From sequence record ON528740: a stretch of 64,000 bases of DNA. One strand, given 5' to 3'. Positions 3,305 through 57,248 of this stretch are shown here, one piece after another. The stretch is from Shigella phage ESh30. The notes beneath the pieces were generated by a model, which searched no databases, was not told the origin of the DNA, and saw only the letters and a list, made by a program, of their open reading frames with translations. A program made the translations under genes and the position numbers. How positions within the stretch are numbered: position 1 is the first letter of the stretch; each line of letters starts with the position of its first letter.

Positions 3305-3574
3305 ATGGAAAACTTAATTATCATCGAGCAATCTTTCAACGATTATGGTATGGCTTACGGTTATCGTGCGATAATGGAAGATTCTCGTGGATGTGTTATC
3401 GATATTGCTGAATGTAAAGATTTACTGCAGCTTTTGAAGATTGTTCGCAAAAATTGGGATTGTGAAAACATTAAAGCTCGTGTTGTAACGGAAGAAGAAA
3501 CTGTTTTTCATGATGTAAAATTCGCTAAAGGTGCTGCTACTCTTCTGAAACGCATCGCTCCACTGTTCAATTAA
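3305..3574 (+). CDS. hypothetical protein (~89 aa)
   Basis: ORF track 3293..3574 trimmed to ATG after RBS ggaga. Confidence 0.45.
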   Translation: MENLIIIEQSFNDYGMAYGYRAIMEDSRGCVIDIAECKDLLQLLKIVRKNWDCENIKARVVTEEETVFHDVKFAKGAATLLKRIAPLFN

Positions 3575-3587
3575 TGAGGAAATTGTA

Positions 3588-3803
3588 ATGAAACGTAAAA
3601 TTGTTCAGAATTGCACTAATGACGAATTTGAAGATGTATTATTTGATCCAAATCTTGTAGTAGTTCAAAAGGAACATACTAATAAGTTTACTCACTTGAC
3701 TTCGGTTTATGTGTACGAAAAAGTTGGTGATAAACAACCAATTTATGGTGTGTTTCGCGAAATTACTGAAGATGGTACAACTTATTGGAAGGAAACTTAT
3801 TAA
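3588..3803 (+). CDS. hypothetical protein (71 aa; size and position of T4 cef)
   Basis: ORF track; RBS gaggaaattgta. Confidence 0.45.
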
Positions 3804-4222
3804 TGGCTATTAAATTTGAAGTTAATAAATGGTATCAATTTAAAAATAAACAAGCTCAAGAAGATTTTATCAAGGACCATACTGAAAACGGAATTTATGC
3901 ACGACGTCTTGGTATGGAACCTTTTAGAGTTACAGATATTGACTATCTTGGTCGTCCTACTAAACTTGTGACATCTAGTGGAAAATTGGCGTTATCTTCT
4001 GGTAAAGATATTTTGGATGAAGATTTTATCTGGCTTTCAACGAGTGAAGCTGTGTTCTTTGATGAAGTGGAAAATCCCTACCAGGCTGCTGAAGAACAAG
4101 AGCAGGAAGAGCAAGAACAAATAGAAGATTTCACAGAATTCCCGATCATGAAAGTTACTATTGAAAATAATGAACAAGCATGGTCCTTGTATCAGATGTT
4201 GAAAGCTCACTTTAAGGAATAA
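3803..4222 (+). CDS. hypothetical acidic protein (~139 aa) with [10 protein letters not shown] tract
   Basis: ORF track 3785..4222; likely start ATG 3803 overlapping upstream stop. Confidence 0.45.
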
Positions 4223-4224
4223 TT

Positions 4225-4401
4225 ATGCCGCTTTATGATTATAAATGCCAATCCGAAGATTGCGGGCATGAATATGAAAAAATTAAAAAGATTTCTGAAC
4301 GAGAAAATGATGTTTGCCCTAAATGTCATCGTTTGTCTACTCGTCGGCCTTCTGCTCCTAAGCATGTGAATGGCGGTTTTTACGATTTACTTAAAGGGTG
4401 A
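4225..4401 (+). CDS. small zinc-ribbon protein (58 aa, two CxxC pairs)
   Basis: ORF below track threshold: MPLYDYKCQSEDCGHEYEKIKKISERENDVCPKCHRLSTRRPSAPKHVNGGFYDLLKG; fills a gap in dense coding. Confidence 0.5.
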   Translation: MPLYDYKCQSEDCGHEYEKIKKISERENDVCPKCHRLSTRRPSAPKHVNGGFYDLLKG

Positions 4402-4403
4402 TT

Positions 4404-4778
4404 ATGTTTAAAATCGGTAAGAAATATCGTGTTCGCGAAGGTGAAGAAAAGAAATATCTACTTTCTTCTAGTAATAGGAATGGTTCTATTAATGCCGTAA
4501 TATCTACAAGCGAATTTATCGTTGAAGATATGAAAGGTCATAATGTTACAATGATTAGTACAGCAACTAGCAGAAATGCTGGAAAAATTCTTCACAGTCT
4601 GCGGAGTGAAGTTCTAATTTATGATGAAGAATTTGACTTCTTCGAAGAAGTTCCCGAAGGTTTTGCTTTTGAATGCACTATCACTATGAAATCTGGTGAC
4701 CCTCTTTCTTTTACAGTTAAAGATGAAAGAAGCCGCTTGAGAGTTATTAGTCTTCTTCAAGCCATTAAATTTAAGTGA
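4404..4778 (+). CDS. hypothetical protein (~124 aa)
   Basis: ORF track 4398..4778 (GTG) trimmed to ATG 4404. Confidence 0.45.
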   Translation: MFKIGKKYRVREGEEKKYLLSSSNRNGSINAVISTSEFIVEDMKGHNVTMISTATSRNAGKILHSLRSEVLIYDEEFDFFEEVPEGFAFECTITMKSGDPLSFTVKDERSRLRVISLLQAIKFK

Positions 4779-4783
4779 AAATT

Positions 4784-5044
4784 ATGAAATATATTAATCG
4801 TTCTATCGCAGCATTAGTATTAGCAGTGTCTTTAGTAGGATGTACTGATGCTGATAATGCAACCAAAGTTTTGTCTTCAAGCGGTTTTACTAATATTGAA
4901 ATCACTGGATATAACTGGTTCGGTTGTTCTGAAAATGATTTCCAACATACTGGATTTCGTGCTATTGGACCTACTGGGCAGAAAGTAGAAGGAACAGTAT
5001 GTTCTGGGCTGTTCTTTAAGGATTCAACTATTCGTTTTAAATAA
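4784..5044 (+). CDS. predicted lipoprotein (signal peptide + lipobox LVGC)
   Basis: MKYINRSIAALVLAVSLVGCTD... N-terminus. Confidence 0.5.
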   Translation: MKYINRSIAALVLAVSLVGCTDADNATKVLSSSGFTNIEITGYNWFGCSENDFQHTGFRAIGPTGQKVEGTVCSGLFFKDSTIRFK

Positions 5045-5062
5045 AAGGCCTTCGGGCCTTTA
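5044..5062 (+). terminator. stem-loop aaggcc-UUCG-ggcctt, intrinsic-terminator-like
   Basis: GC stem with UUCG tetraloop followed by T-rich tract. Confidence 0.5.
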
Positions 5063-5113
5063 GCTTTATGATTGCCGGAGTATAATATTCCCGAAACCAA
5101 ACGAGGATAAGTG

Positions 5114-6931
5114 ATGATTAAGAATGAAATTAAAATTCTGAGCGATATTGAACATATCAAAAAGCGTAGCGGCATGTATATTGGCTCTTCTGCTAATGAA
5201 ATGCATGAGCGCTTTCTGTTTGGTAAATGGGAAAGTGTTCAGTATGTACCTGGTCTTGTTAAGCTTATTGATGAAATTATCGATAACTCAGTCGATGAAG
5301 GTATTCGTACTAAGTTTAAATTCGCGAATAAAATTAATGTTACCATTAAAAATAATCAGGTAACAGTTGAAGATAACGGTCGTGGTATTCCACAAGCGAT
5401 GGTTAAAACACCTACCGGTGAAGAAATTCCTGGTCCTGTTGCTGCCTGGACTATTCCAAAAGCAGGTGGTAACTTTGGTGATGATAAAGAACGTGTCACC
5501 GGTGGTATGAATGGTGTTGGTTCTAGTTTAACTAACATTTTTTCTGTGATGTTTGTCGGTGAAACTGGCGATGGTCAAAATAATATTGTAGTTCGTTGTT
5601 CAAATGGTATGGAAAATAAATCCTGGGAAACTATTCCTGGAAAATGGAAAGGAACTCGTGTTACTTTCATTCCTGATTTTATGTCATTTGAAACTAATGA
5701 GCTGTCCCAGGTTTATCTTGACATTACACTGGATCGTCTCCAGACACTTGCTGTCGTTTATCCTGATATTCAATTTACCTTTAATGGTAAAAAGGTTCAG
5801 GGTAATTTTAAGAAATATGCACGCCAATATGATGAGCATGCTATTGTTCAAGAACAAGAAAATTGTTCTATTGCGGTTGGTCGTTCACCGGATGGTTTTC
5901 GTCAATTAACATACGTCAATAACATTCATACTAAGAATGGTGGCCATCACATTGACTGTGTTATGGATGATATTTGCGAAGACCTTATTCCACAAATCAA
6001 ACGTAAATTCAAAATTGATGTAACTAAAGCACGCGTTAAAGAATGTTTGACTATCGTTATGTTTGTTCGTGATATGAAAAACATGCGATTTGATTCTCAA
6101 ACTAAAGAGCGTTTGACTTCTCCATTTGGCGAAATTCGTAGTCATATTCAGCTTGATGCTAAAAAGATTTCACGCGCTATTCTAAATAATGAAGCAATTC
6201 TAATGCCGATTATTGAAGCTGCTTTGGCTCGTAAATTGGCGGCAGAGAAAGCAGCAGAAACTAAAGCAGCTAAAAAGGCTTCTAAAGCTAAAGTTCATAA
6301 ACATATCAAAGCGAATCTTTGCGGTAAAGATGCTGATACTACTCTTTTCTTGACTGAGGGTGATTCGGCTATCGGATATCTTATTGATGTTCGTGATAAA
6401 GAACTTCATGGTGGTTATCCATTGCGCGGTAAAGTTCTCAACAGTTGGGGTATGTCATATGCTGATATGCTTAAAAACAAAGAACTATTTGATATTTGCG
6501 CAATCACTGGATTAGTTCTTGGTGAAAAAGCTGAAAACTTGAATTATCATAATATTGCTATTATGACTGATGCTGACCATGATGGTCTAGGAAGCATTTA
6601 TCCTTCTCTGCTCGGATTTTTTAGTAATTGGCCAGAATTGTTTGAGCAAGGACGAATTCGCTTTGTCAAAACTCCTGTAATCATCGCTCAGGTCGATAAA
6701 AAACAAGAATGGTTTTATACAGTCGCTGAATATGAGAGTGCTAAAGATGCTCTACCTAAACATAGCATCCGTTATATTAAGGGACTTGGCTCTTTGGAAA
6801 AATCTGAATATCGTGAGATGATTCAAAATCCAGTATATGATGTTGTTAAACTTCCTGAGAACTGGAAAGAGCTTTTTGAAATGCTCATGGGAGATAATGC
6901 TGACCTTCGTAAAGAATGGATGAGCCAGTAG
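5114..6931 (+). CDS. 39: DNA topoisomerase II large subunit (GyrB-like ATPase), uninterrupted 605 aa
   Basis: MIKNEIKILSDIEHIKKRSGMYIGS... GHKL ATPase and TOPRIM motifs; full-length single ORF, unlike T4 where the C-terminal part is the separate gene 60. Confidence 0.95.
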   Translation: MIKNEIKILSDIEHIKKRSGMYIGSSANEMHERFLFGKWESVQYVPGLVKLIDEIIDNSVDEGIRTKFKFANKINVTIKNNQVTVEDNGRGIPQAMVKTPTGEEIPGPVAAWTIPKAGGNFGDDKERVTGGMNGVGSSLTNIFSVMFVGETGDGQNNIVVRCSNGMENKSWETIPGKWKGTRVTFIPDFMSFETNELSQVYLDITLDRLQTLAVVYPDIQFTFNGKKVQGNFKKYARQYDEHAIVQEQENCSIAVGRSPDGFRQLTYVNNIHTKNGGHHIDCVMDDICEDLIPQIKRKFKIDVTKARVKECLTIVMFVRDMKNMRFDSQTKERLTSPFGEIRSHIQLDAKKISRAILNNEAILMPIIEAALARKLAAEKAAETKAAKKASKAKVHKHIKANLCGKDADTTLFLTEGDSAIGYLIDVRDKELHGGYPLRGKVLNSWGMSYADMLKNKELFDICAITGLVLGEKAENLNYHNIAIMTDADHDGLGSIYPSLLGFFSNWPELFEQGRIRFVKTPVIIAQVDKKQEWFYTVAEYESAKDALPKHSIRYIKGLGSLEKSEYREMIQNPVYDVVKLPENWKELFEMLMGDNADLRKEWMSQ

Positions 6932-6960
6932 TTTACTTTACCACAAGGATGTGGTATAAT
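6931..6960 (+). promoter_or_regulatory. T4-type early promoter (GTTTAC ... GTGGTATAAT)
   Basis: gtttactttaccacaaggatgtggtataat immediately downstream of gene 39 stop. Confidence 0.6.
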
Positions 6961-6985
6961 TAATTGGGCAAATGAGGATATTGAA

Positions 6986-7189
6986 ATGAAATCATATAGA
7001 GTAAATTTAGAACTTTTTGATAAAGCAGTTCATCGAGAATATAGAATCATTCAACGCTTTTTCGATATGGGAGAAGCCGAAGAATTTAAAAACCGCTTTA
7101 AAGATATTAGAGATAAAATTCAATCTGACACCGCAACTAAAGACGAACTACTAGAAGTTGCTGAAGTTATTAAGCGTAATATGAATTAA
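6986..7189 (+). CDS. hypothetical protein (67 aa), in the rIIA.1 position
   Basis: ORF track; lies between 39 and rIIA. Confidence 0.5.
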
Positions 7190-7199
7190 TGAGGAAATT

Positions 7200-9377
7200 A
7201 TGATTATCACCACTGAAAAAGAAACAATTCTTGGTAATGGTTCTAAATCAAAAGCATTTAGCATCACAGCATCTCCTAAAGTATTTAAAATCTTATCATC
7301 TGATTTGTATACAAATAAGATTCGCGCAGTTGTTCGTGAATTGATTACCAACATGATTGATGCCCATGCTCTCAATGGAAATCCTGAAAAATTTATCATT
7401 CAAGTTCCTGGACGTTTAGATCCACGATTTGTTTGTCGAGATTTTGGTCCGGGTATGAGTGATTTTGATATTCAGGGTGATGATAATTCTCCTGGGTTAT
7501 ATAATTCATACTTCAGTTCATCTAAGGCTGAATCTAATGACTTTATTGGCGGATTTGGTTTAGGTTCTAAATCTCCGTTTAGTTATACTGATACGTTTAG
7601 TATTACTTCGTATCATAAAGGTGAAATTCGTGGTTATGTAGCTTACATGGATGGTGATGGCCCACAGATTAAACCTACATTCGTAAAAGAAATGGGTCCA
7701 GATGATAAAACTGGTATTGAAATCGTAGTTCCAGTTGAAGAAAAAGACTTTAGAAACTTTGCTTATGAAGTTTCTTATATCATGCGACCATTCAAAGATT
7801 TGGCTATCATTAATGGTCTTGACCGCGAAATTGATTATTTTCCGGATTTTGATGACTATTACGGTGTAAATCCAGAAAGATACTGGCCTGATCGTGGTGG
7901 ATTATATGCTATCTATGGCGGTATTGTTTATCCTATCGATGGTGTTATTAGAGACCGTAACTGGCTAAGCATTCGCAATGAAGTGAATTACATTAAGTTT
8001 CCAATGGGTTCACTTGATATTGCTCCATCTCGCGAGGCTCTTTCACTGGATGATCGTACTCGTAAAAATATTATTGAACGAGTTAAAGAACTCAGTGAGA
8101 AAGCATTTAATGAAGATGTAAAACGATTTAAAGAATCCACATCTCCCCGTCATACATATCGTGAATTGATGAAGATGGGGTATTCTGCTCGAGATTATAT
8201 GATTAGTAATTCAGTCAAATTTACGACTAAAAATCTGTCATATAAGAAGATGCAAAGCATGTTTGAACCTGATAGTAAGTTATGCAATGCAGGAGTTGTG
8301 TATGAAGTAAATCTTGACCCTCGACTGAAGCGCATTAAGCAAAGTCATGAAACTTCAGCCGTTGCATCAAGTTATCGTCTGTTTGGTATTAATGCAACAA
8401 AAATTAATATCGTTATTGATAATATTAAAAATCGTGTTAATATTGTCCGTGGATTAGCACATGCGTTAGATGATAGTGAATTTAATAACACTTTGAATAT
8501 TCATCACAACGAACGCCTTCTGTTTATTAATCCAGAAGTAGAATCGCAGATTGATTTGCTTCCTGATATTATGGCGATGTTTGAAAGTGATGAAGTTAAC
8601 ATTCATTATCTGTCAGAAATTGAAACTTTAGTTAAAAGCTATATTCCAAAGGTAGTTAAAAGTAAAGCTCCTCGTCCTAAAGCTGCTACAGCATTTAAAT
8701 TTGAAATTAAAGATGGGCGATGGGAAAAAGAGGAACTATTTACACTTACGTCAGAAGCAGATGAAATTACTGGTTATGTAGCGTATATGCATCGTTCTGA
8801 TATTTTCTCTATGGATGGTACTACATCACTTTGTCATCCATCTATGAATATTTTGATTCGTATGGCTAATCTTATTGGCATTAATGAATTTTATGTTATT
8901 CGTCCGCTTTTACAGAAAAAGGTAAAAGAACTCGGTCAGTGCCAATGTATTTTTGAAGCTTTGCGTGATTTATATGTAGATGCTTTTGATGATGTAGATT
9001 ATGATAAGTATGTAGGTTATTCAAGTTCAGCTCAACGATATATTGATAAAATTATCAAGTATCCTGAGCTAGATTTTATGATGAAGTACTTCAGTACAGA
9101 TGAAGTTTCTGAAGAATATACACGACTCGCTAATATAGTTAGTTCATTGCGCGGTGTATATTTTAATGGTGGAAAAGATACCATCGGTCATGACATCTGG
9201 ACAGTAATTAATCTTTTTGATGTATTATCAAATAATGCTTCAAAAAACAGTGATAAAATGGTTGCTGAGTTTACCAAGAAATTCCGTATTGTTTCCGACT
9301 TCATCGGATATCGCAACTCTTTAAGTGATGATGAAGTTTCTCAAATCGCTAAAACTATGAAGGCCCTTGCGGCCTAA
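7200..9377 (+). CDS. rIIA: rIIA membrane-associated protein (725 aa, GHKL-ATPase-like N-terminal region)
   Basis: 725-aa ORF, same length as T4 rIIA; followed by rIIB. Confidence 0.93.
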
Positions 9378-9388
9378 TAAGGAAAATT

Positions 9389-10327
9389 ATGTACAATATT
9401 AAATGCCTGACCAAAAACGAACAAGCTGAAATTGTTAAGCTGTATTCAAGTGGTAATTACACCCAACAGGAATTGGCTGATTGGCAAGGTGTATCGGTTG
9501 ACACAATCCGTCGTGTTTTGAAAAATGCTGAAGAAGCTAAACGCTCTAAAGTTACTATTAGCGGTGATATTACAGTTAAAGTTAATAGCGATGTAGTTAT
9601 TGCTCCAGTTGCTAAATCTGACATTATTTGGAATGCATCTAAAAAATTCATTTCAATTACTGTTGATGGTGTAACTTATAATGCAACACCTAATACTCAT
9701 TCAAACTTCCAGGAAATTCTTAATCTGCTTGTAGCGGATAAGCTGGAAGAAGCAGCACAAAAAATTAATGTTCGTCGCGCTGTTGAAAAATATATTTCCG
9801 GTGATGTTCGAATTGAAGGTGGAAGCTTATTCTATCAAAATATTGAATTGCGGTCTGGTTTGGTTGATCGTATTCTTGATTCGATGGAAAAAGGCGAAAA
9901 CTTTGAATTTTATTTTCCGTTCTTGGAAAATCTGCTGGAAAACCCAAGCCAGAAAGCGGTATCTCGACTTTTTGATTTCTTGGTAGCAAACGATATTGAA
10001 ATTACAGAAGATGGTTACTTCTATGCTTGGAAAGTAGTTCGCAGTAATTACTTTGACTGTCACTCAAATACCTTTGATAACAGTCCTGGTAAAGTAGTTA
10101 AAATGCCGCGTACTCGTGTGAATGACGATGATACACAAACTTGTTCTCGTGGTCTGCATGTGTGTTCTAAATCTTATATTCGTCACTTCGGTAGTTCAAC
10201 CAGCCGAGTTGTAAAAGTTAAAGTTCATCCTCGTGATGTAGTATCAATTCCGATTGATTACAACGACGCTAAAATGCGTACCTGCCAATACGAAGTAATT
10301 GAAGACGTTACTGAACAATTTAAATAA
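9389..10327 (+). CDS. rIIB: rIIB protein (312 aa)
   Basis: 312-aa ORF MYNIKCLTKNEQAEIVKLYSSGNYTQQELADWQGVSVDTIRRVL...; length and position match T4 rIIB. Confidence 0.93.
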   Translation: MYNIKCLTKNEQAEIVKLYSSGNYTQQELADWQGVSVDTIRRVLKNAEEAKRSKVTISGDITVKVNSDVVIAPVAKSDIIWNASKKFISITVDGVTYNATPNTHSNFQEILNLLVADKLEEAAQKINVRRAVEKYISGDVRIEGGSLFYQNIELRSGLVDRILDSMEKGENFEFYFPFLENLLENPSQKAVSRLFDFLVANDIEITEDGYFYAWKVVRSNYFDCHSNTFDNSPGKVVKMPRTRVNDDDTQTCSRGLHVCSKSYIRHFGSSTSRVVKVKVHPRDVVSIPIDYNDAKMRTCQYEVIEDVTEQFK

Positions 10328-10341
10328 GGGCTTCGGCCCTT
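10326..10341 (+). terminator. stem-loop aaggg-CUUCGG-ccctt after rIIB
   Basis: Inverted repeat; the identical hairpin recurs at 10554..10569. Confidence 0.4.
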
Positions 10342-10355
10342 AACTAAGGAAAATT

Positions 10356-10553: not shown

Positions 10554-10576
10554 AAGGGCTTCGGCCCTTTTGTTTT
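10554..10576 (+). terminator. intrinsic terminator (gggcttcggccc + TTTTGTTTT)
   Basis: GC hairpin with UUCG loop followed by T-run. Confidence 0.6.
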
Positions 10577-13153: not shown

Positions 13154-13233
13154 TGAGTAATTTCCATAACGAACATGTGATGCAGTTCTATCGTAATAAT
13201 TTTAAAACTAAAGGCGTCTTCGGACGCCAGTGA
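13153..13233 (+). CDS. stp: Stp peptide (26 aa), activator of host PrrC anticodon nuclease / restriction-modulating peptide
   Basis: [26 protein letters not shown] recognised as T4 Stp (one substitution from my recollection of the T4 sequence); not in ORF track. Confidence 0.8.
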
Positions 13234-31489: not shown

Positions 31490-32395
31490 ATGTTTAAACG
31501 TAAATCTACTGCTGAACTTGCTGCACAAATGGCTAAACTGAATGGCAATAAAGGTTTTTCTTCTGAAGATAAAGGCGAGTGGAAGCTGAAACTCGATAAT
31601 GCGGGTAACGGTCAAGCAGTAATTCGTTTTCTTCCGTCTAAAAATGATGAACAAGCACCATTCGCAATTCTTGTAAATCACGGTTTCAAGAAAAATGGTA
31701 AATGGTATATTGAAACATGTTCATCTACCCATGGTGATTACGATTCTTGTCCAGTATGTCAGTACATCAGTAAAAATGATCTGTACAACACTGACAATAA
31801 AGAGTACAGTCTTGTTAAACGTAAAACTTCTTACTGGGCTAATATTCTTGTTGTAAAAGACCCAGCTGCTCCAGAAAATGAAGGTAAAGTATTTAAATAT
31901 CGTTTCGGTAAGAAAATCTGGGATAAAATCAACGCGATGATTGCGGTTGATGTTGAAATGGGTGAAACTCCGGTTGATGTAACTTGTCCGTGGGAAGGTG
32001 CTAACTTTGTACTGAAAGTTAAACAAGTTTCTGGTTTTAGTAACTACGACGAATCTAAATTCCTGAATCAATCTGCGATTCCAAACATTGACGATGAATC
32101 TTTCCAGAAAGAACTGTTCGAACAAATGGTTGACCTTTCTGAAATGACTTCTAAAGATAAATTCAAATCGTTTGAAGAACTGAGCACTAAATTCGGTCAA
32201 GTTATGGGAACTGCTGTGATGGGCGGTGCTGCTGCAACTGCTGCTAAGAAAGCTGATAAAGTTGCTGATGATTTGGATGCATTCAATGTTGATGACTTCA
32301 ATACAAAAACTGAAGATGATTTTATGAGCTCAAGCTCTGGCAGTTCATCTAGTGCTGATGACACGGACCTGGATGACCTTTTGAATGACCTTTAA
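31490..32395 (+). CDS. 32: single-stranded DNA-binding protein gp32 (301 aa)
   Basis: [92 protein letters not shown]... recognised as T4 gp32 with Zn-binding Cys/His cluster and acidic C-terminus. Confidence 0.95.
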
Positions 32396-41681: not shown

Positions 41682-41735
41682 GTTTACAAGTCCCTCGTGT
41701 TGTGTTACAGTAGTCTTACTGACATAACATGAGGA
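41682..41735 (+). promoter_or_regulatory. early promoter / 5' UTR module, copy A of a 54-bp near-identical repeat (other copy 55903..55956)
   Basis: gtttacaagtccctcgtgttgtgttacagtagtcttactgacataacatgagga; 1 mismatch to copy B. Confidence 0.6.
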
Positions 41736-41742
41736 CTTTATG

Positions 41743-42246
41743 ATGGATTTGCAGCTAATTACTACTGAAATGGTCGTTGAAGCATACGGTGATACTACAG
41801 ATGGGATTTCTGTATTTAAAGGAAACCGTCGAGTTGGATATATCACCGATCTTAAGAAAGATTTAGCTAAGCAAGTCAAGCGGAAAACGACCATTAAAGA
41901 ATATCGAAATCGTCGTCTTGAGCAAGCCCGTGATATGCTTCCTGATGCGGTTGAAGAGATGAAAGTCTTTTTAGAAAATCAGCTTGCGAAATATGATTGT
42001 GATGTATTTATTAATCAGACTCAACCTAATGTTCATATCAATAGTTGTAAATGCTATATCATCGTTAATCCTTTGACTGGAAAGCATCGTCTTGGAATTA
42101 GTAATCCAAATCGTAGTGCATCGGATATGGCAGAAGATGTTGAGGCATGCTTTAAAATTTCTAAATCTCCAGCTGAACATCATATTTTAATTAACGGTCT
42201 TTCTCAAGACGATATTATAGAGGTTATTAAAACTTTATGCATGTAA
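41743..42246 (+). CDS. alc: Alc, inhibitor of host transcription elongation on C-containing DNA (167 aa)
   Basis: MDLQLITTEMVVEAYGDTTDGISVFKGNRRVGYITDLKKDLAKQVKRKT...; position after rnlA as in T4. Confidence 0.8.
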   Translation: MDLQLITTEMVVEAYGDTTDGISVFKGNRRVGYITDLKKDLAKQVKRKTTIKEYRNRRLEQARDMLPDAVEEMKVFLENQLAKYDCDVFINQTQPNVHINSCKCYIIVNPLTGKHRLGISNPNRSASDMAEDVEACFKISKSPAEHHILINGLSQDDIIEVIKTLCM

Positions 42247-48649: not shown

Positions 48650-48676
48650 AGGACTCCTTCGGGAGTCCTTTTTTAT
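48650..48676 (+). terminator. intrinsic terminator (aggactcc-UUCG-ggagtcct + T7)
   Basis: Perfect 8-bp stem, UUCG loop, TTTTTTATTTT. Confidence 0.7.
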
Positions 48677-53256: not shown

Positions 53257-53441
53257 AAGCTTACTTAGAAACAATTGTCGTGGCTCAAAAAGAAGGTGGA
53301 GATGTTTCTACTTCTGTATCACAAGTCATTCTCGAATTTGTAGATGCATACGCTTATAATAAATTTACAGAAACATTTGATGCCTATGAAAAAGGACCAA
53401 AGTTTGAAATATATCGTACTCTCTTACCACTAGATTACTAA
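53253..53441 (+). CDS. hypothetical protein (62 aa)
   Basis: ORF track; ATGA-coupled to ligase. Confidence 0.45.
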   Translation: MKAYLETIVVAQKEGGDVSTSVSQVILEFVDAYAYNKFTETFDAYEKGPKFEIYRTLLPLDY

Positions 53442-53456
53442 AGGCCTTCGGGCCTT
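53441..53456 (+). terminator. stem-loop aaggcc-UUCG-ggcctt
   Basis: Same hairpin sequence as at 5044..5062. Confidence 0.5.
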
Positions 53457-53462
53457 TAATTT

Positions 53463-53493: not shown

Positions 53494-55542
53494 ATGGAAC
53501 TTATTACAGAATTATTTGACGAAGATACTACTCTTCCGATTACAAACTTAAATCCAAAGAAGAAAATACCGCAAATTTTTTCAGTTCATGTTGATGATGC
53601 AATTGAACAACCAGGCTTTCGTTTATGTACCTATACATCTGGAGGTGATACTAATCGCGATTTAAAAATGGGCGATAAAATGATGCATATTGTTCCTTTT
53701 ACATTAACTGCTAAAGGTTCAATTGCTAAATTAAAAGGTCTTGGTCCAAGCCCAATTAATTATATCAATTCAGTTTTTACTGTTGCAATGCAAACAATGC
53801 GTCAGTATAAAATTGATGCTTGTATGCTTCGTATTCTTAAGTCTAAAACCGCTGGTCAAGCTCGACAAATTCAAGTTATTGCTGATAGACTTATCCGTAG
53901 TCGTTCAGGTGGCAGATACGTCCTTCTTAAGGAACTCTGGGATTACGATAAAAAGTATGCATATATTCTTATACATCGCAAAAATGTATCACTAGAAGAC
54001 ATTCCAGGGGTTCCGGAAATTAGTACCGAGCTCTTTACTAAAGTTGAATCGAAGGTCGGTGATGTTTATATCAATAAAGATACTGGAGCTCAAGTAACTA
54101 AAAATGAGGCAATTGCAGCATCTATTGCACAAGAAAATGATAAACGTTCTGATCAAGCTGTAATCGTTAAAGTTAAAATTTCCCGTAGAGCAATTGCACA
54201 AAGTCAGTCGTTGGAATCTTCTAGATTTGAAACACCGATGTTTCAAAAATTTGAGGCTTCAGCGGCAGAATTAAATAAACCAGCGGACGCTCCTTTAATT
54301 TCTGATTCTAATGAATTAACGGTAATTTCTACTTCAGGATTTGCACTAGAGAATGCTCTTAGCAGTGTTACAGCTGGGATGGCATTCAGAGAAGCTTCTA
54401 TAATTCCTGAAGATAAAGAATCCATTATTAATGCAGAAATAAAAAATAAAGCTTTAGAAAAATTACGAAAAGAATCTATTACTTCAATAAAAACTTTAGA
54501 AACTATTGCTTCTATCGTCGATGATACTTTAGAAAAATATAAAGGTGCTTGGTTTGAAAGAAATATTAACAGACATTCGCATTTAAACCAAGATGCTGCA
54601 AATGAGTTAGTACAAAATTCTTGGAATGCAATAAAAACAAAGATTATTCGAAGAGAATTACGTGGATATGCTCTTACCGCTGGATGGTCATTACATCCTA
54701 TAGTCGAAAATAAAGATTCATCTAAATACACACCAGCACAAAAACGCGGAATTCGTGAATACGTAGGTTCAGGATATGTAGACATAAATAATGCTCTTTT
54801 GGGATTATATAATCCAGATGAGCGTACAAGTATTTTAACAGCACCTGAAATAGAACAAGCCATTGATAATTTAGATTCAGCCTTTAAAAATGGTGAACGA
54901 TTACCAAAAGGTATTACTTTGTATCGTTCACAACGAATGTTACCTTCAATATACGAAGCAATGGTAAAAAATCGAGTTTTTTATTTTAGAAACTTTGTGT
55001 CAACATCATTATATCCAAATATTTTTGGTACTTGGATGACTGATTCATCTGTGGGTGTTTTACCAGATGAAAAGCGTCTAAACATTTCTATCGATAAAAA
55101 TGATGAAGGGCTTGTTAATTCTAGCGATAATTTAGTCGGAATTGGATGGGTTATTACTGGGGCTGATAAAGTCAACGTTGTTTTACCCGGTGGAAGTTTA
55201 GCGCCTTCAAATGAAATGGAAGTCATTTTGCCACGTGGATTAATGGTCAAAGTTAATAAAATAACTGATGCATCTTACAATGATGGAACAGTCAAAACTA
55301 ACAACAAGCTTATTCAAGCTGAAGTTATGACCACCGAAGAACTCACCGAATCAGTAATTTATGACGGTGACCGTTTAATGGAAACCGGCGAAGTAGTTAC
55401 AATGACAGGTGATATAGAAGATAGAGTTGACTTTGCATCATTTGTTTCATCAAATGTTAAACAGAAAGTAGAATCATCTCTTGGAATTATTGCGTCTTGC
55501 ATAGATATTGCAAACATGCCTTACAAGTTCGTTCAAGGATAA
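53494..55542 (+). CDS. alt: ADP-ribosyltransferase Alt (682 aa), modifies host RNA polymerase
   Basis: MELITELFDEDTTLPITNLNPKKKIPQIFSVHVDDAIEQPGFRLCTYTSGGDTNRDLKMGDKMMHIVPF...; length and position between 30 and 54 as in T4. Confidence 0.88.
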   Translation: MELITELFDEDTTLPITNLNPKKKIPQIFSVHVDDAIEQPGFRLCTYTSGGDTNRDLKMGDKMMHIVPFTLTAKGSIAKLKGLGPSPINYINSVFTVAMQTMRQYKIDACMLRILKSKTAGQARQIQVIADRLIRSRSGGRYVLLKELWDYDKKYAYILIHRKNVSLEDIPGVPEISTELFTKVESKVGDVYINKDTGAQVTKNEAIAASIAQENDKRSDQAVIVKVKISRRAIAQSQSLESSRFETPMFQKFEASAAELNKPADAPLISDSNELTVISTSGFALENALSSVTAGMAFREASIIPEDKESIINAEIKNKALEKLRKESITSIKTLETIASIVDDTLEKYKGAWFERNINRHSHLNQDAANELVQNSWNAIKTKIIRRELRGYALTAGWSLHPIVENKDSSKYTPAQKRGIREYVGSGYVDINNALLGLYNPDERTSILTAPEIEQAIDNLDSAFKNGERLPKGITLYRSQRMLPSIYEAMVKNRVFYFRNFVSTSLYPNIFGTWMTDSSVGVLPDEKRLNISIDKNDEGLVNSSDNLVGIGWVITGADKVNVVLPGGSLAPSNEMEVILPRGLMVKVNKITDASYNDGTVKTNNKLIQAEVMTTEELTESVIYDGDRLMETGEVVTMTGDIEDRVDFASFVSSNVKQKVESSLGIIASCIDIANMPYKFVQG

Positions 55543-55545
55543 ATC

Positions 55546-55931
55546 ATGGAACTTATTACATAATTATTTGACGGCGCTTCGGCGCCGGTTATTAACTTAA
55601 ATCCTAAGCATAAAATACCACAAATTTTTGCTATTCAAGCCGGCGAAGAAAGCGTGCTTCCTGGATTTAGATTTTGTACATACACCTCTGGCGGTGATAC
55701 AAATAAAACGTTAAACCAGGCGATAAAATGATGCATATCGTAATGATAGGTGTTAATGAGAAACTATCATTAGTTAAGCTTAAAAACTTGAGTGGAAATC
55801 CAATTGGTGTCATTAATGCTGTTTTTGATACTGCTCTTCAAACAATGAAACAGTATAAAATCGACGCATGCCTATTACGCGTACTAAAAAGTTCAAAATG
55901 TAGTTTACAAGTCCCTCGTGTTGTGTTATAG
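55546..55931 (+). pseudogene. disrupted partial paralog of the alt 5' region (nonsense codon at codon 6 and a 1-nt deletion); distal part is a 67-aa ORF
   Basis: atggaacttattacaTAA... aligns to alt atggaacttattacaGAA...; downstream frame MMHIVMIGVNEKLSLVKLKNLSGNPIGVINAVFDTALQTMKQYKIDACLLRVLKS parallels Alt residues 64-120. Confidence 0.6.
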
Positions 55932-55956
55932 TAGTCTTACTGACATAACATGAGGA
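55903..55956 (+). promoter_or_regulatory. early promoter / 5' UTR module, copy B of the 54-bp repeat (copy A at 41682..41735)
   Basis: gtttacaagtccctcgtgttgtgttatagtagtcttactgacataacatgagga. Confidence 0.6.
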
Positions 55957-55963
55957 ACACAAA

Positions 55964-56254
55964 ATGAAATCTTCTTTACGCTTTTTAGGTCAAGAACTTG
56001 TAGTTGAAGGCGTTATTCCTGCTGATAATGCTTTTAATGAAGCAGTTTATGATGAATTTATCAAAATTTTCGGAACAGATAAAAAGTTTGGAATTTTTCC
56101 TTCTGAAAATTTTTCAAAGCCAGAACAGACTGAAAGTATTTTTCAGGGTGTAGTAACAGGTAAATTTGAGTCAGAAGCTCCGGTAAAAATTGAAGTTTAT
56201 ATTGAAGACAGTTTAGTTGCTTCAGTTGCTGCTTTTATTTCATTCCGTAAATAA
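55964..56254 (+). CDS. hypothetical protein (96 aa)
   Basis: ORF track; RBS gagga. Confidence 0.5.
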   Translation: MKSSLRFLGQELVVEGVIPADNAFNEAVYDEFIKIFGTDKKFGIFPSENFSKPEQTESIFQGVVTGKFESEAPVKIEVYIEDSLVASVAAFISFRK

Positions 56255-56259
56255 AAATA

Positions 56260-56279
56260 TGGGGACCGAAAGGTCCCCA
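56260..56279. terminator. bidirectional terminator hairpin (tggggacc-gaaa-ggtcccca) between convergent genes
   Basis: Perfect 8-bp GC stem with GAAA loop between + strand ORF and - strand gene 54. Confidence 0.65.
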
Positions 56280-56282
56280 TTG

Positions 56283-57248
56283 TTATATTGCTCCTAATAT
56301 TTTACTTTGCGAATTGACAATTCCTGTCATAGTATTAATGTTTGAAATGCTTCCTGCAGTTCCACCTAATCTACTGAGTCGTGAAAGCGAATTAGATAGT
56401 CCAGTAACACCTCCACTATTTCCGAGAACGCTTTGAATACCGTTTATGGCAGCAGATTCAAGCCATTCAAGCGCAGCTTGCCTATCAACTGCTCCAGCCT
56501 GCATCACTCTATACGCAAAAGTAACATCAAATGTAGTTATTTGGTTATCTCCATCATATGATAACTCAGGAGCGCTCACTGATATTGGAATGCATCCGGT
56601 GAACATCACTGCAGTATGAGGTAATCCATTACGAGCATGAAGATTAACCTGAATATCTGCCTCGACATCTTGCGGCAAAGCACGTAGTCCAGTTACTGGG
56701 TCTTGAACAGAGTTAACCCAGTCTTGCATTGCACGATAGTTACAAGCTTCTGAATCCATTCTAAATGAAATAACCAAAGGGTCTAATTCTCTTCCAGTTA
56801 TACGAATATTAGGAGAATTATAGTTCCAGTCAGTTTCATAGGATAATCTATTCTCTGGCATTTTTACAGAATATATCATCAATCCAGATGAGTTATATGC
56901 CATGTTAAAGAAGTCAATTAAATATGTACCAACTGTAAATGAGCCTAATAAACTTTGAACTGTACGTTGACTCATGGCACCAATAAGATATTTACTAACC
57001 CCTGATTTTCTTATCAGTTTTTGTGTGCCAGCGGTAATTAGCGTGGTAATTCCCTGATTAATATCACCTTGAGTTAATCCCAACCAATCTGAATTTAGAC
57101 CCAAGTTATTATAAGCAAAGTTACTAATTGAGCTTATTAACGATGAGCTTTTAGTTGATGGAGTTGTAGCAAAAACACAGCTGAACATATTATTACGTTG
57201 GAAGTCTGCGTTTATTGCTTGATTATTAAATTCCTCTAAAGAATACAT
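56283..57248 (-). CDS. 54: baseplate-tail tube initiator gp54 (321 aa)
   Basis: Length and position (alt side of the 48-29-28-27-51 cluster) as in T4. Confidence 0.82.
   Translation of the reverse strand: MYSLEEFNNQAINADFQRNNMFSCVFATTPSTKSSSLISSISNFAYNNLGLNSDWLGLTQGDINQGITTLITAGTQKLIRKSGVSKYLIGAMSQRTVQSLLGSFTVGTYLIDFFNMAYNSSGLMIYSVKMPENRLSYETDWNYNSPNIRITGRELDPLVISFRMDSEACNYRAMQDWVNSVQDPVTGLRALPQDVEADIQVNLHARNGLPHTAVMFTGCIPISVSAPELSYDGDNQITTFDVTFAYRVMQAGAVDRQAALEWLESAAINGIQSVLGNSGGVTGLSNSLSRLSRLGGTAGSISNINTMTGIVNSQSKILGAI

Follow-up and report, generated by a model that had tools for sequence, protein, structure and literature searches.

The window analyzed here is the whole 64,000-nucleotide stretch of Shigella phage ESh30 DNA (sequence record ON528740). 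At the locus of interest, DNA ligase (gene 30), alt.1 and alt are followed by a short gap and a DUF5498 ORF, with genes 54, 48 and 29 on the opposite strand. The stop codon of alt lies at 55540-55542, and an alt-like sequence restarts right after it, from a new ATG at 55546. The order along the DNA is alt (53494-55542), the restarted sequence (55546-55931) and alt.-3, the DUF5498 ORF (55964-56254). Individual features are listed here with the evidence for each.

53494..55542, + strand: alt, the intact first copy, encoding a 682-aa packaged ADP-ribosyltransferase (ORF; Pfam PF03496, E = 1.1e-35; the T4T equivalent is annotated alt)
55546..55731, + strand: 5' portion of what remains of the second alt, the counterpart of T4 alt.-1 (98-99% identity to T4T alt.-1; 96.6% to the start of the HP3 second alt)
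55561..55563, + strand: codon 6, here a TAA stop, a lineage-specific lesion that turned GAA into TAA by a G-to-T change (GAA in T4T, F25, HP3 and 441 records; TAA in 44)
55572..55587, + strand: C(UUCG)G hairpin, CGGCGC-UUCG-GCGCCG (predicted fold: 6-bp stem, UUCG loop; also in the intact HP3 copy)
55705..55708, + strand: A-run frameshift site, which divides the remnant between the frames of alt.-1 and alt.-2 (A4 here; A5 in HP3, SG1, fPS-2 and fPS-90)
55728..55931, + strand: 67-aa ORF, the counterpart of T4 alt.-2 (its residues 1-55 match Alt2 62-116; no Pfam match; broken in HY03, altered in F25)
55884..55892, no strand: deletion junction, a single copy of CTAAAAAGT (the repeat occurs twice in the intact gene, 1,699 bp apart; same junction in 15/15 remnants)
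55893..55903, + strand: the second alt's surviving last codons and original TAG (55901-55903), now out of frame (aligns with HP3 8548-8558, ...TTC AAA ATG TAG)
55903..55932, + strand: early-type alt.-3 promoter, GTTTAC, 18 nt, TG-n-TATAGT (promoter scan 10/12, TG upstream; pattern unique in the window)
55964..56254, + strand: alt.-3 (DUF5498), an intact neighbor outside the pseudogene (Pfam PF17602, E = 1.4e-64; T4T annotation)

Homology to alt and to T4 alt.-1/alt.-2

The first-pass annotation had described this stretch as a disrupted tandem paralog of the alt 5' end, with TAA at codon 6 in place of the GAA of alt and a 1-nt deletion further on. These observations hold. When 55546-55931 was aligned against the whole window, 55546-55870 matched alt 53494-53822 with 68.7% nucleotide identity (E = 9e-26), and the conceptual protein with both lesions undone shares 62% identity with residues 1-117 of Alt (E = 2e-48). 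The similarity between the remnant and alt is far beyond chance. Codon 6 (55561-55563) is GAA in alt and also in T4 alt.-1, and the A-run at 55705-55708 has four residues here and five in the intact copies.

Over its 386 nt, the stretch is 98.4% identical to T4 alt.-1 plus alt.-2. In the T4T GenBank record, its homolog carries the names alt.-1 (61 codons; T4p199, UniProt P39495 in the T4 entries) and alt.-2 (67 codons; T4p198, UniProt P39494), with a note that the two jointly are a second alt copy after a deletion and a later frame shift. The position between alt and alt.-3, the 1,699-bp deletion junction, the A4 frameshift and the hairpin are common to T4 and the window. The two differ at codon 6, which is GAA in T4, where alt.-1 is an open 61-codon ORF; in the window this codon is TAA, so that the part equivalent to alt.-1 is closed at codon 6 and the alt.-2 ORF alone is left. 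There are five further point differences between them.

With a 901-nt query across the locus, 502 phage records matched at 95-99.8% identity (98.0% for T4); almost all are Tequatrovirus, which places the window in a T4-like phage. The closest GenBank relative at the locus is Shigella phage ESh36, with 1 mismatch in 386 nt. Nolan et al. 2006 briefly mention alt.-1/alt.-2 as an alt paralog (PMC1524935), and the annotators of the fPS-2 record labeled the remnant 'putative pseudogene'. The locus is already known and its origin is explained in GenBank; the TAA allele is the sole item absent from the T4 record, and it is a minor variant common to 44 deposited genomes. We conclude that 55546-55931 is very probably the non-functional, decaying residue of a once full-length second alt ('alt2') and corresponds to T4 alt.-1 plus alt.-2. 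It is an ordinary pseudogene in decay.

An intact second alt and a 1,699-bp deletion

The ancestral form of the remnant is preserved in relatives. With the 386-nt stretch as query, 489 records cover at least 80% of it, and among the matches listed, most end at query position 347, inside a gene annotated as an Alt-like ADP-ribosyltransferase. An intact second gene of this type (2,058 nt, 685 aa, PF03496) lies at the same position in ~400 Tequatrovirus records, including T2 and HP3, and also in RB18. T2 has two Alt-like genes at the site. In HP3, alt (4440-6497) and the second alt (6501-8558, YP_010228765.1) stand in tandem and are followed by the alt.-3 homolog. The protein from the HP3 second alt has 685 aa and shares 41% identity with Alt across its full length; its PF03496 ART domain spans residues 413-620 (E = 4.4e-20). 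The remnant is 96.6% identical in nucleotide sequence to the intact second alt, versus 68.7% to the adjoining alt.

By blastn, window 55400-55892 corresponds to HP3 6349-6848 (96.6%) and window 55884-56300 to HP3 8539-8955 (97.4%), with a 9-nt overlap. This overlap is a 9-bp direct repeat, CTAAAAAGT, which begins at 6840 and at 8539 in HP3 and occurs once in the window, at 55884-55892. One copy in the window as against two in HP3 means that 1,699 bp were lost between 9-bp direct repeats. Of the second alt, 347 nt at the start and ~20 nt at the end were kept and are 96-97% identical to the intact gene of T2, HP3, RB18 and most Tequatroviruses, the hairpin-encoding segment included; in contrast to the intact gene, the window lacks codons ~117-680 with the PF03496 catalytic domain and has a nonsense codon and a frameshift besides. 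A loss of 1,699 bp, not divisible by 3, leaves the two parts out of frame with each other. The junction is spanned contiguously by only 90 of the 502 records, and a scan of IMG/VR with the junction 23-mer returned only 2 contigs, both with the identical junction.

These alignments bear directly on the extent of the duplication. The first-pass annotation was right that the stretch is the trace of an old tandem duplication, but it had confined that duplication to the N-terminal, virion-targeting region of alt, so that there would never have been a whole second gene. Although just ~330 nt of alt-like sequence is visible inside the window, this reading is almost certainly wrong: a full-length gene occupies the same position in ~400 relatives and is far closer to the remnant than alt is (96.6% against 68.7%), the second alt's last 20 nt and stop persist downstream of the junction, and the 9-bp direct repeat marks a deletion. 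Alignment to the intact copies thus rules out an N-terminal-only duplication; the full-length second copy in HP3 indicates that the duplication is old and covered the whole gene.

The consequences for coding capacity follow from the same comparison. The ~680-codon ORF of the intact gene is absent from the window remnant, given the stop at codon 6, the frameshift at 55705-55708 and the deletion at 55884-55892. The 67-aa ORF gave no Pfam match to the ART domain (PF03496, ADPrib_exo_Tox), which lies within the deleted 1,699 bp. With its catalytic domain deleted, the remnant is no functional member of the ADP-ribosyltransferase family.

We propose the following order of events, inferred from the aligned genomes. 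An old tandem duplication of alt would have given rise to two ADP-ribosyltransferase genes that diverged to 41% identity overall and 62% over the first 117 residues, and most Tequatroviruses still have both. In the lineage to which this phage and T4 belong, 1,699 bp and with them the whole catalytic domain were then lost between the CTAAAAAGT repeats, probably through illegitimate recombination or replication slippage; direct repeats of 9 bp flanking a deletion are the expected signature of either process. Later lesions would include the A5-to-A4 slip, the nonsense change of codon 6 from GAA to TAA (carried by this phage and by 44 GenBank records, not by T4) and private indels elsewhere. Lying between alt and alt.-3, the region is still transcribed, but it would yield no useful protein. 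Beyond annotation hygiene the remnant has little significance, and the locus offers a clean, datable case of paralog loss in T-even phages, through microhomology-mediated deletion and then stepwise decay.

The biologically more interesting object is the intact second Alt-like ADP-ribosyltransferase that is missing from T4 and from this window. Our literature search for a named or characterized second Alt paralog turned up nothing beyond the short reference in Nolan et al. 2006 (PMC1524935), and for the targets of the intact enzyme it returned no description.

Other genomes carry further forms of the locus. KAW1E185 has a single mosaic alt (3501-5558) in which nt 1-807 match alt (95%), nt 1754-2058 match the HP3 second copy (94%) and the middle is close to neither. 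This mosaic is another route from a tandem pair to one gene, and the alt/alt2 pair appears as a plastic locus that occurs whole, in truncated form or as a fused mosaic. In HY03, alt is annotated as a 645-nt 3' piece only (4359-5003), with unrelated opposite-strand genes directly upstream; the short gene reflects a genuine rearrangement or else an error of assembly.

The stop at codon 6 and the UUCG hairpin

A stop codon beside a stable hairpin invites a reading as a recoding signal, a context that the first-pass annotation thought the sequence loosely resembled. In that case, the TAA would be read through or bypassed under stimulation by the UUCG hairpin, yielding a continuous product. A stable 6-bp C(UUCG)G hairpin does begin 8 nt past the stop. 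Such a spacing is superficially like that of known readthrough and frameshift stimulators, of which retroviral gag-pol, with UAG and a pseudoknot, is an example. The TAA is also no one-off. Using 45-mers centered on codon 6, for which a central mismatch blocks megablast seeding so that only the exact allele is counted, we found the TAA form in 44 GenBank records and the GAA form in 441.

The distribution of the two alleles nevertheless leaves programmed recoding scarcely credible. Every TAA carrier checked, ~21 of ~28 distinct TAA phages, also has the 1.7-kb deletion (11 by fetched sequence and ~10 more by full coverage of junction-spanning queries), and a TAA within an intact alt2 ORF was found in none of these ~21. 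The stop is a derived change, found among these carriers only where the gene had already been destroyed by the loss of 1,699 bp. Nor is there a long conserved in-frame ORF around it: past the TAA, frame 0 runs to the next stop at codon 62 and then meets many stops, so that a readthrough product would be a fragment of at most 61 aa. Stop and structure are not conserved together either, as the hairpin accompanies GAA in 441 records and TAA in 44 and thus shows no co-evolution with the stop. UAA is moreover the tightest stop codon in E. coli, and T4 has no stop at this position and its protein is undetected anyway. We reject recoding on the allele distribution, with no intact gene among the ~21 TAA carriers.

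The window shares with stop-codon readthrough signals a stop with a stable structure ~8 nt downstream. It differs from them in that its stop is a recent UAA mutation in a truncated gene, its structure is older than the stop, it has no long downstream ORF, and the structure is a simple hairpin with no pseudoknot. For genome scans, the lesson is that a stop beside a stable hairpin is no evidence of recoding unless the two are jointly conserved and the gene is open apart from that stop.

The hairpin has a simpler origin as part of alt2. In the intact paralog it lies inside the coding sequence and encodes (D)GASAP (G-A-S-A-P). The first-pass annotation had it replace a segment of alt; a 24-nt stretch with CGGCGC-UUCG-GCGCCG does stand against a 27-nt alt segment, but no replacement took place in this phage, the stretch being native coding sequence of a diverged paralog, in a 45-mer that is identical in 441 GAA records. 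The hairpin is identical in those records and in intact genes; it therefore arose before the stop, has no connection with it, and came down as part of the alt2 coding sequence.

C(UUCG)G tetraloop hairpins were first described in T4 mRNA and have long been known there (PMC4371310). The hairpin in the window resembles them in its loop, its closing C:G pair and its G+C-rich stem, and differs in lying within (former) coding sequence, not between genes, and in having no U-tract and not being terminator-like. The stem is followed by GUUAUUAAC, with no U-tract after it. A reading of 55572-55587 as an intrinsic terminator was discarded for this reason; the terminator scan lists 53439-53458 and 56259-56280, not this hairpin.

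Seven G+C-rich C(UUCG)G hairpins occur on the + strand of the window (5044-5061, 10325-10342, 10554-10569, 13213-13228, 48650-48669, 53439-53458 and 55572-55587), and random shuffles give ~2 TTCG hairpins of any kind on both strands combined. The one at 53439-53458, just past alt.1, is terminator-like too.

Decay of the remnant and its downstream boundary

We compared 15 remnants: the window, T4T, F25, SG1, ESh36, ACG-C40, HY03, pSe_SNUABM_01, slur03, fPS-2, fPS-90, Lutter, JEP6 and two IMG/VR contigs. Their states at the informative sites were as follows.

Deletion junction identical: 15/15
Hairpin present: 15/15
A-run A4 (frameshift): 12/15
A-run A5 (ancestral): 3/15 (SG1, fPS-2, fPS-90)
Codon 6 TAA: 11/15
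Codon 6 GAA: 4/15 (T4T, F25, two IMG/VR contigs)

Fetched sequences were used for the frameshift allele, since a count by 45-mer is too low where nearby SNPs break the seed. The ancestral 128-codon fragment is open in none of the 15, each of which has at least one lesion beyond the deletion. Some carry further changes: an additional 7-bp duplication destroys alt.-2 in HY03, a 1-nt deletion alters the alt.-2 tail in F25, and ACG-C40 and pSe_SNUABM_01 have changes at the stop. In phage F1, 377 record bases are aligned with the 386-nt query. Such a mix of independent disabling changes is a pseudogene pattern. The remnants are 98-99% identical, and this divergence of 1-2% supplies too few substitutions for a selection test (dN/dS).

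The combinations GAA+A4, TAA+A4 and TAA+A5 are all present among deletion carriers. Either the A-run slip recurred or reverted, or remnants recombined between lineages.

The 67-aa ORF at 55728-55931 exists as the first-pass annotation reported, but its paralogy to Alt extends over only part of its length. The first ~55 residues align with Alt 62-117; the last ~12 come from reading the alt2 3' end and the alt.-3 promoter out of frame. Past the original gene end, the alt.-2 ORF continues for 28 nt, giving ...SSKCSLQVPRVVL, to a stop at 55929-55931, and this TAG sits within the -10 box of the promoter. As the ORF end overlaps the promoter, the tail of the 67-aa product is translated promoter sequence and no conserved peptide.

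In a T4 time-course omics study, RNA from alt.-1 and alt.-2 was found and assigned to the 'middle' class, and the Alt.-1 and Alt.-2 proteins were given as NA, i.e., not detected, although small proteins are easily missed by proteomics (PMC9697503 Table S2). RNA with no detected protein fits a remnant that is transcribed but is untranslated or unstable.

Could the remnant nonetheless have been put to use? The 67-aa Alt.-2 peptide might be functional, as might an RNA whose very stable hairpin, just 3' of alt, could for instance act as a barrier that shields the alt message, or selection might have silenced a harmful truncated Alt2 N-terminus. We consider co-option or silencing of this kind very unlikely. 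Thirteen of the 15 remnants keep an open alt.-2 ORF and all 15 have an unchanged hairpin, but at a remnant divergence of only 1-2%, open ORFs and invariant motifs are expected by default, and alt.-2 is in fact broken or altered in HY03 and F25. A transcript is detected in T4, but the protein is not; the ORF tail is translated promoter sequence; and the hairpin comes without a U-tract. In favor of silencing, the 128-codon fragment is broken by an extra lesion in 15/15 remnants, with lesions that differ (TAA versus A4).

Selection may also be framed around the lesions themselves. They could have been favored as secondary lesions against a harmful 128-codon Alt2 fragment, for example one competing with Alt for packaging, or the UUCG hairpin could stabilize the alt message. 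If silencing was selected, the knock-outs would be TAA at codon 6 in one phage set and the A-run slip in another, with both in this phage. The fragment left by the deletion still has the Alt-type N-terminus, which has been linked to capsid targeting; a search of a review of the T4 head gave nothing usable on the capsid targeting of Alt. We give such selection, or a stabilizing hairpin, a small chance at best, and a remnant in which function has most probably been lost remains our preferred reading.

The 3' end of the remnant probably survives because it carries the early promoter of alt.-3. This promoter is followed by a Shine-Dalgarno sequence and alt.-3, and the Lutter record has a promoter annotated at the same spot. 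[quoted passage not shown] The window has the wild-type 96-aa form of alt.-3.

A 48-nt piece of the alt.-3 promoter matches MG010123.1 (Staphylococcus phage SAJK-IND) at 31849-31896 with 98% identity, at the end of a 32-kb record; this is probably contamination or a chimeric assembly. Within the window, near-identical ~55-nt cassettes lie at 41682-41737 and 55903-55957, each with an early-type promoter (GTTTAC-N18-TA[C/T]AGT), a 5'UTR and a Shine-Dalgarno sequence. The first stands upstream of an alc-like ORF (41740-42246) and the second upstream of alt.-3, an arrangement reminiscent of the repeated regulatory cassettes proposed for modular shuffling in T4-type phages (PMC2839356).
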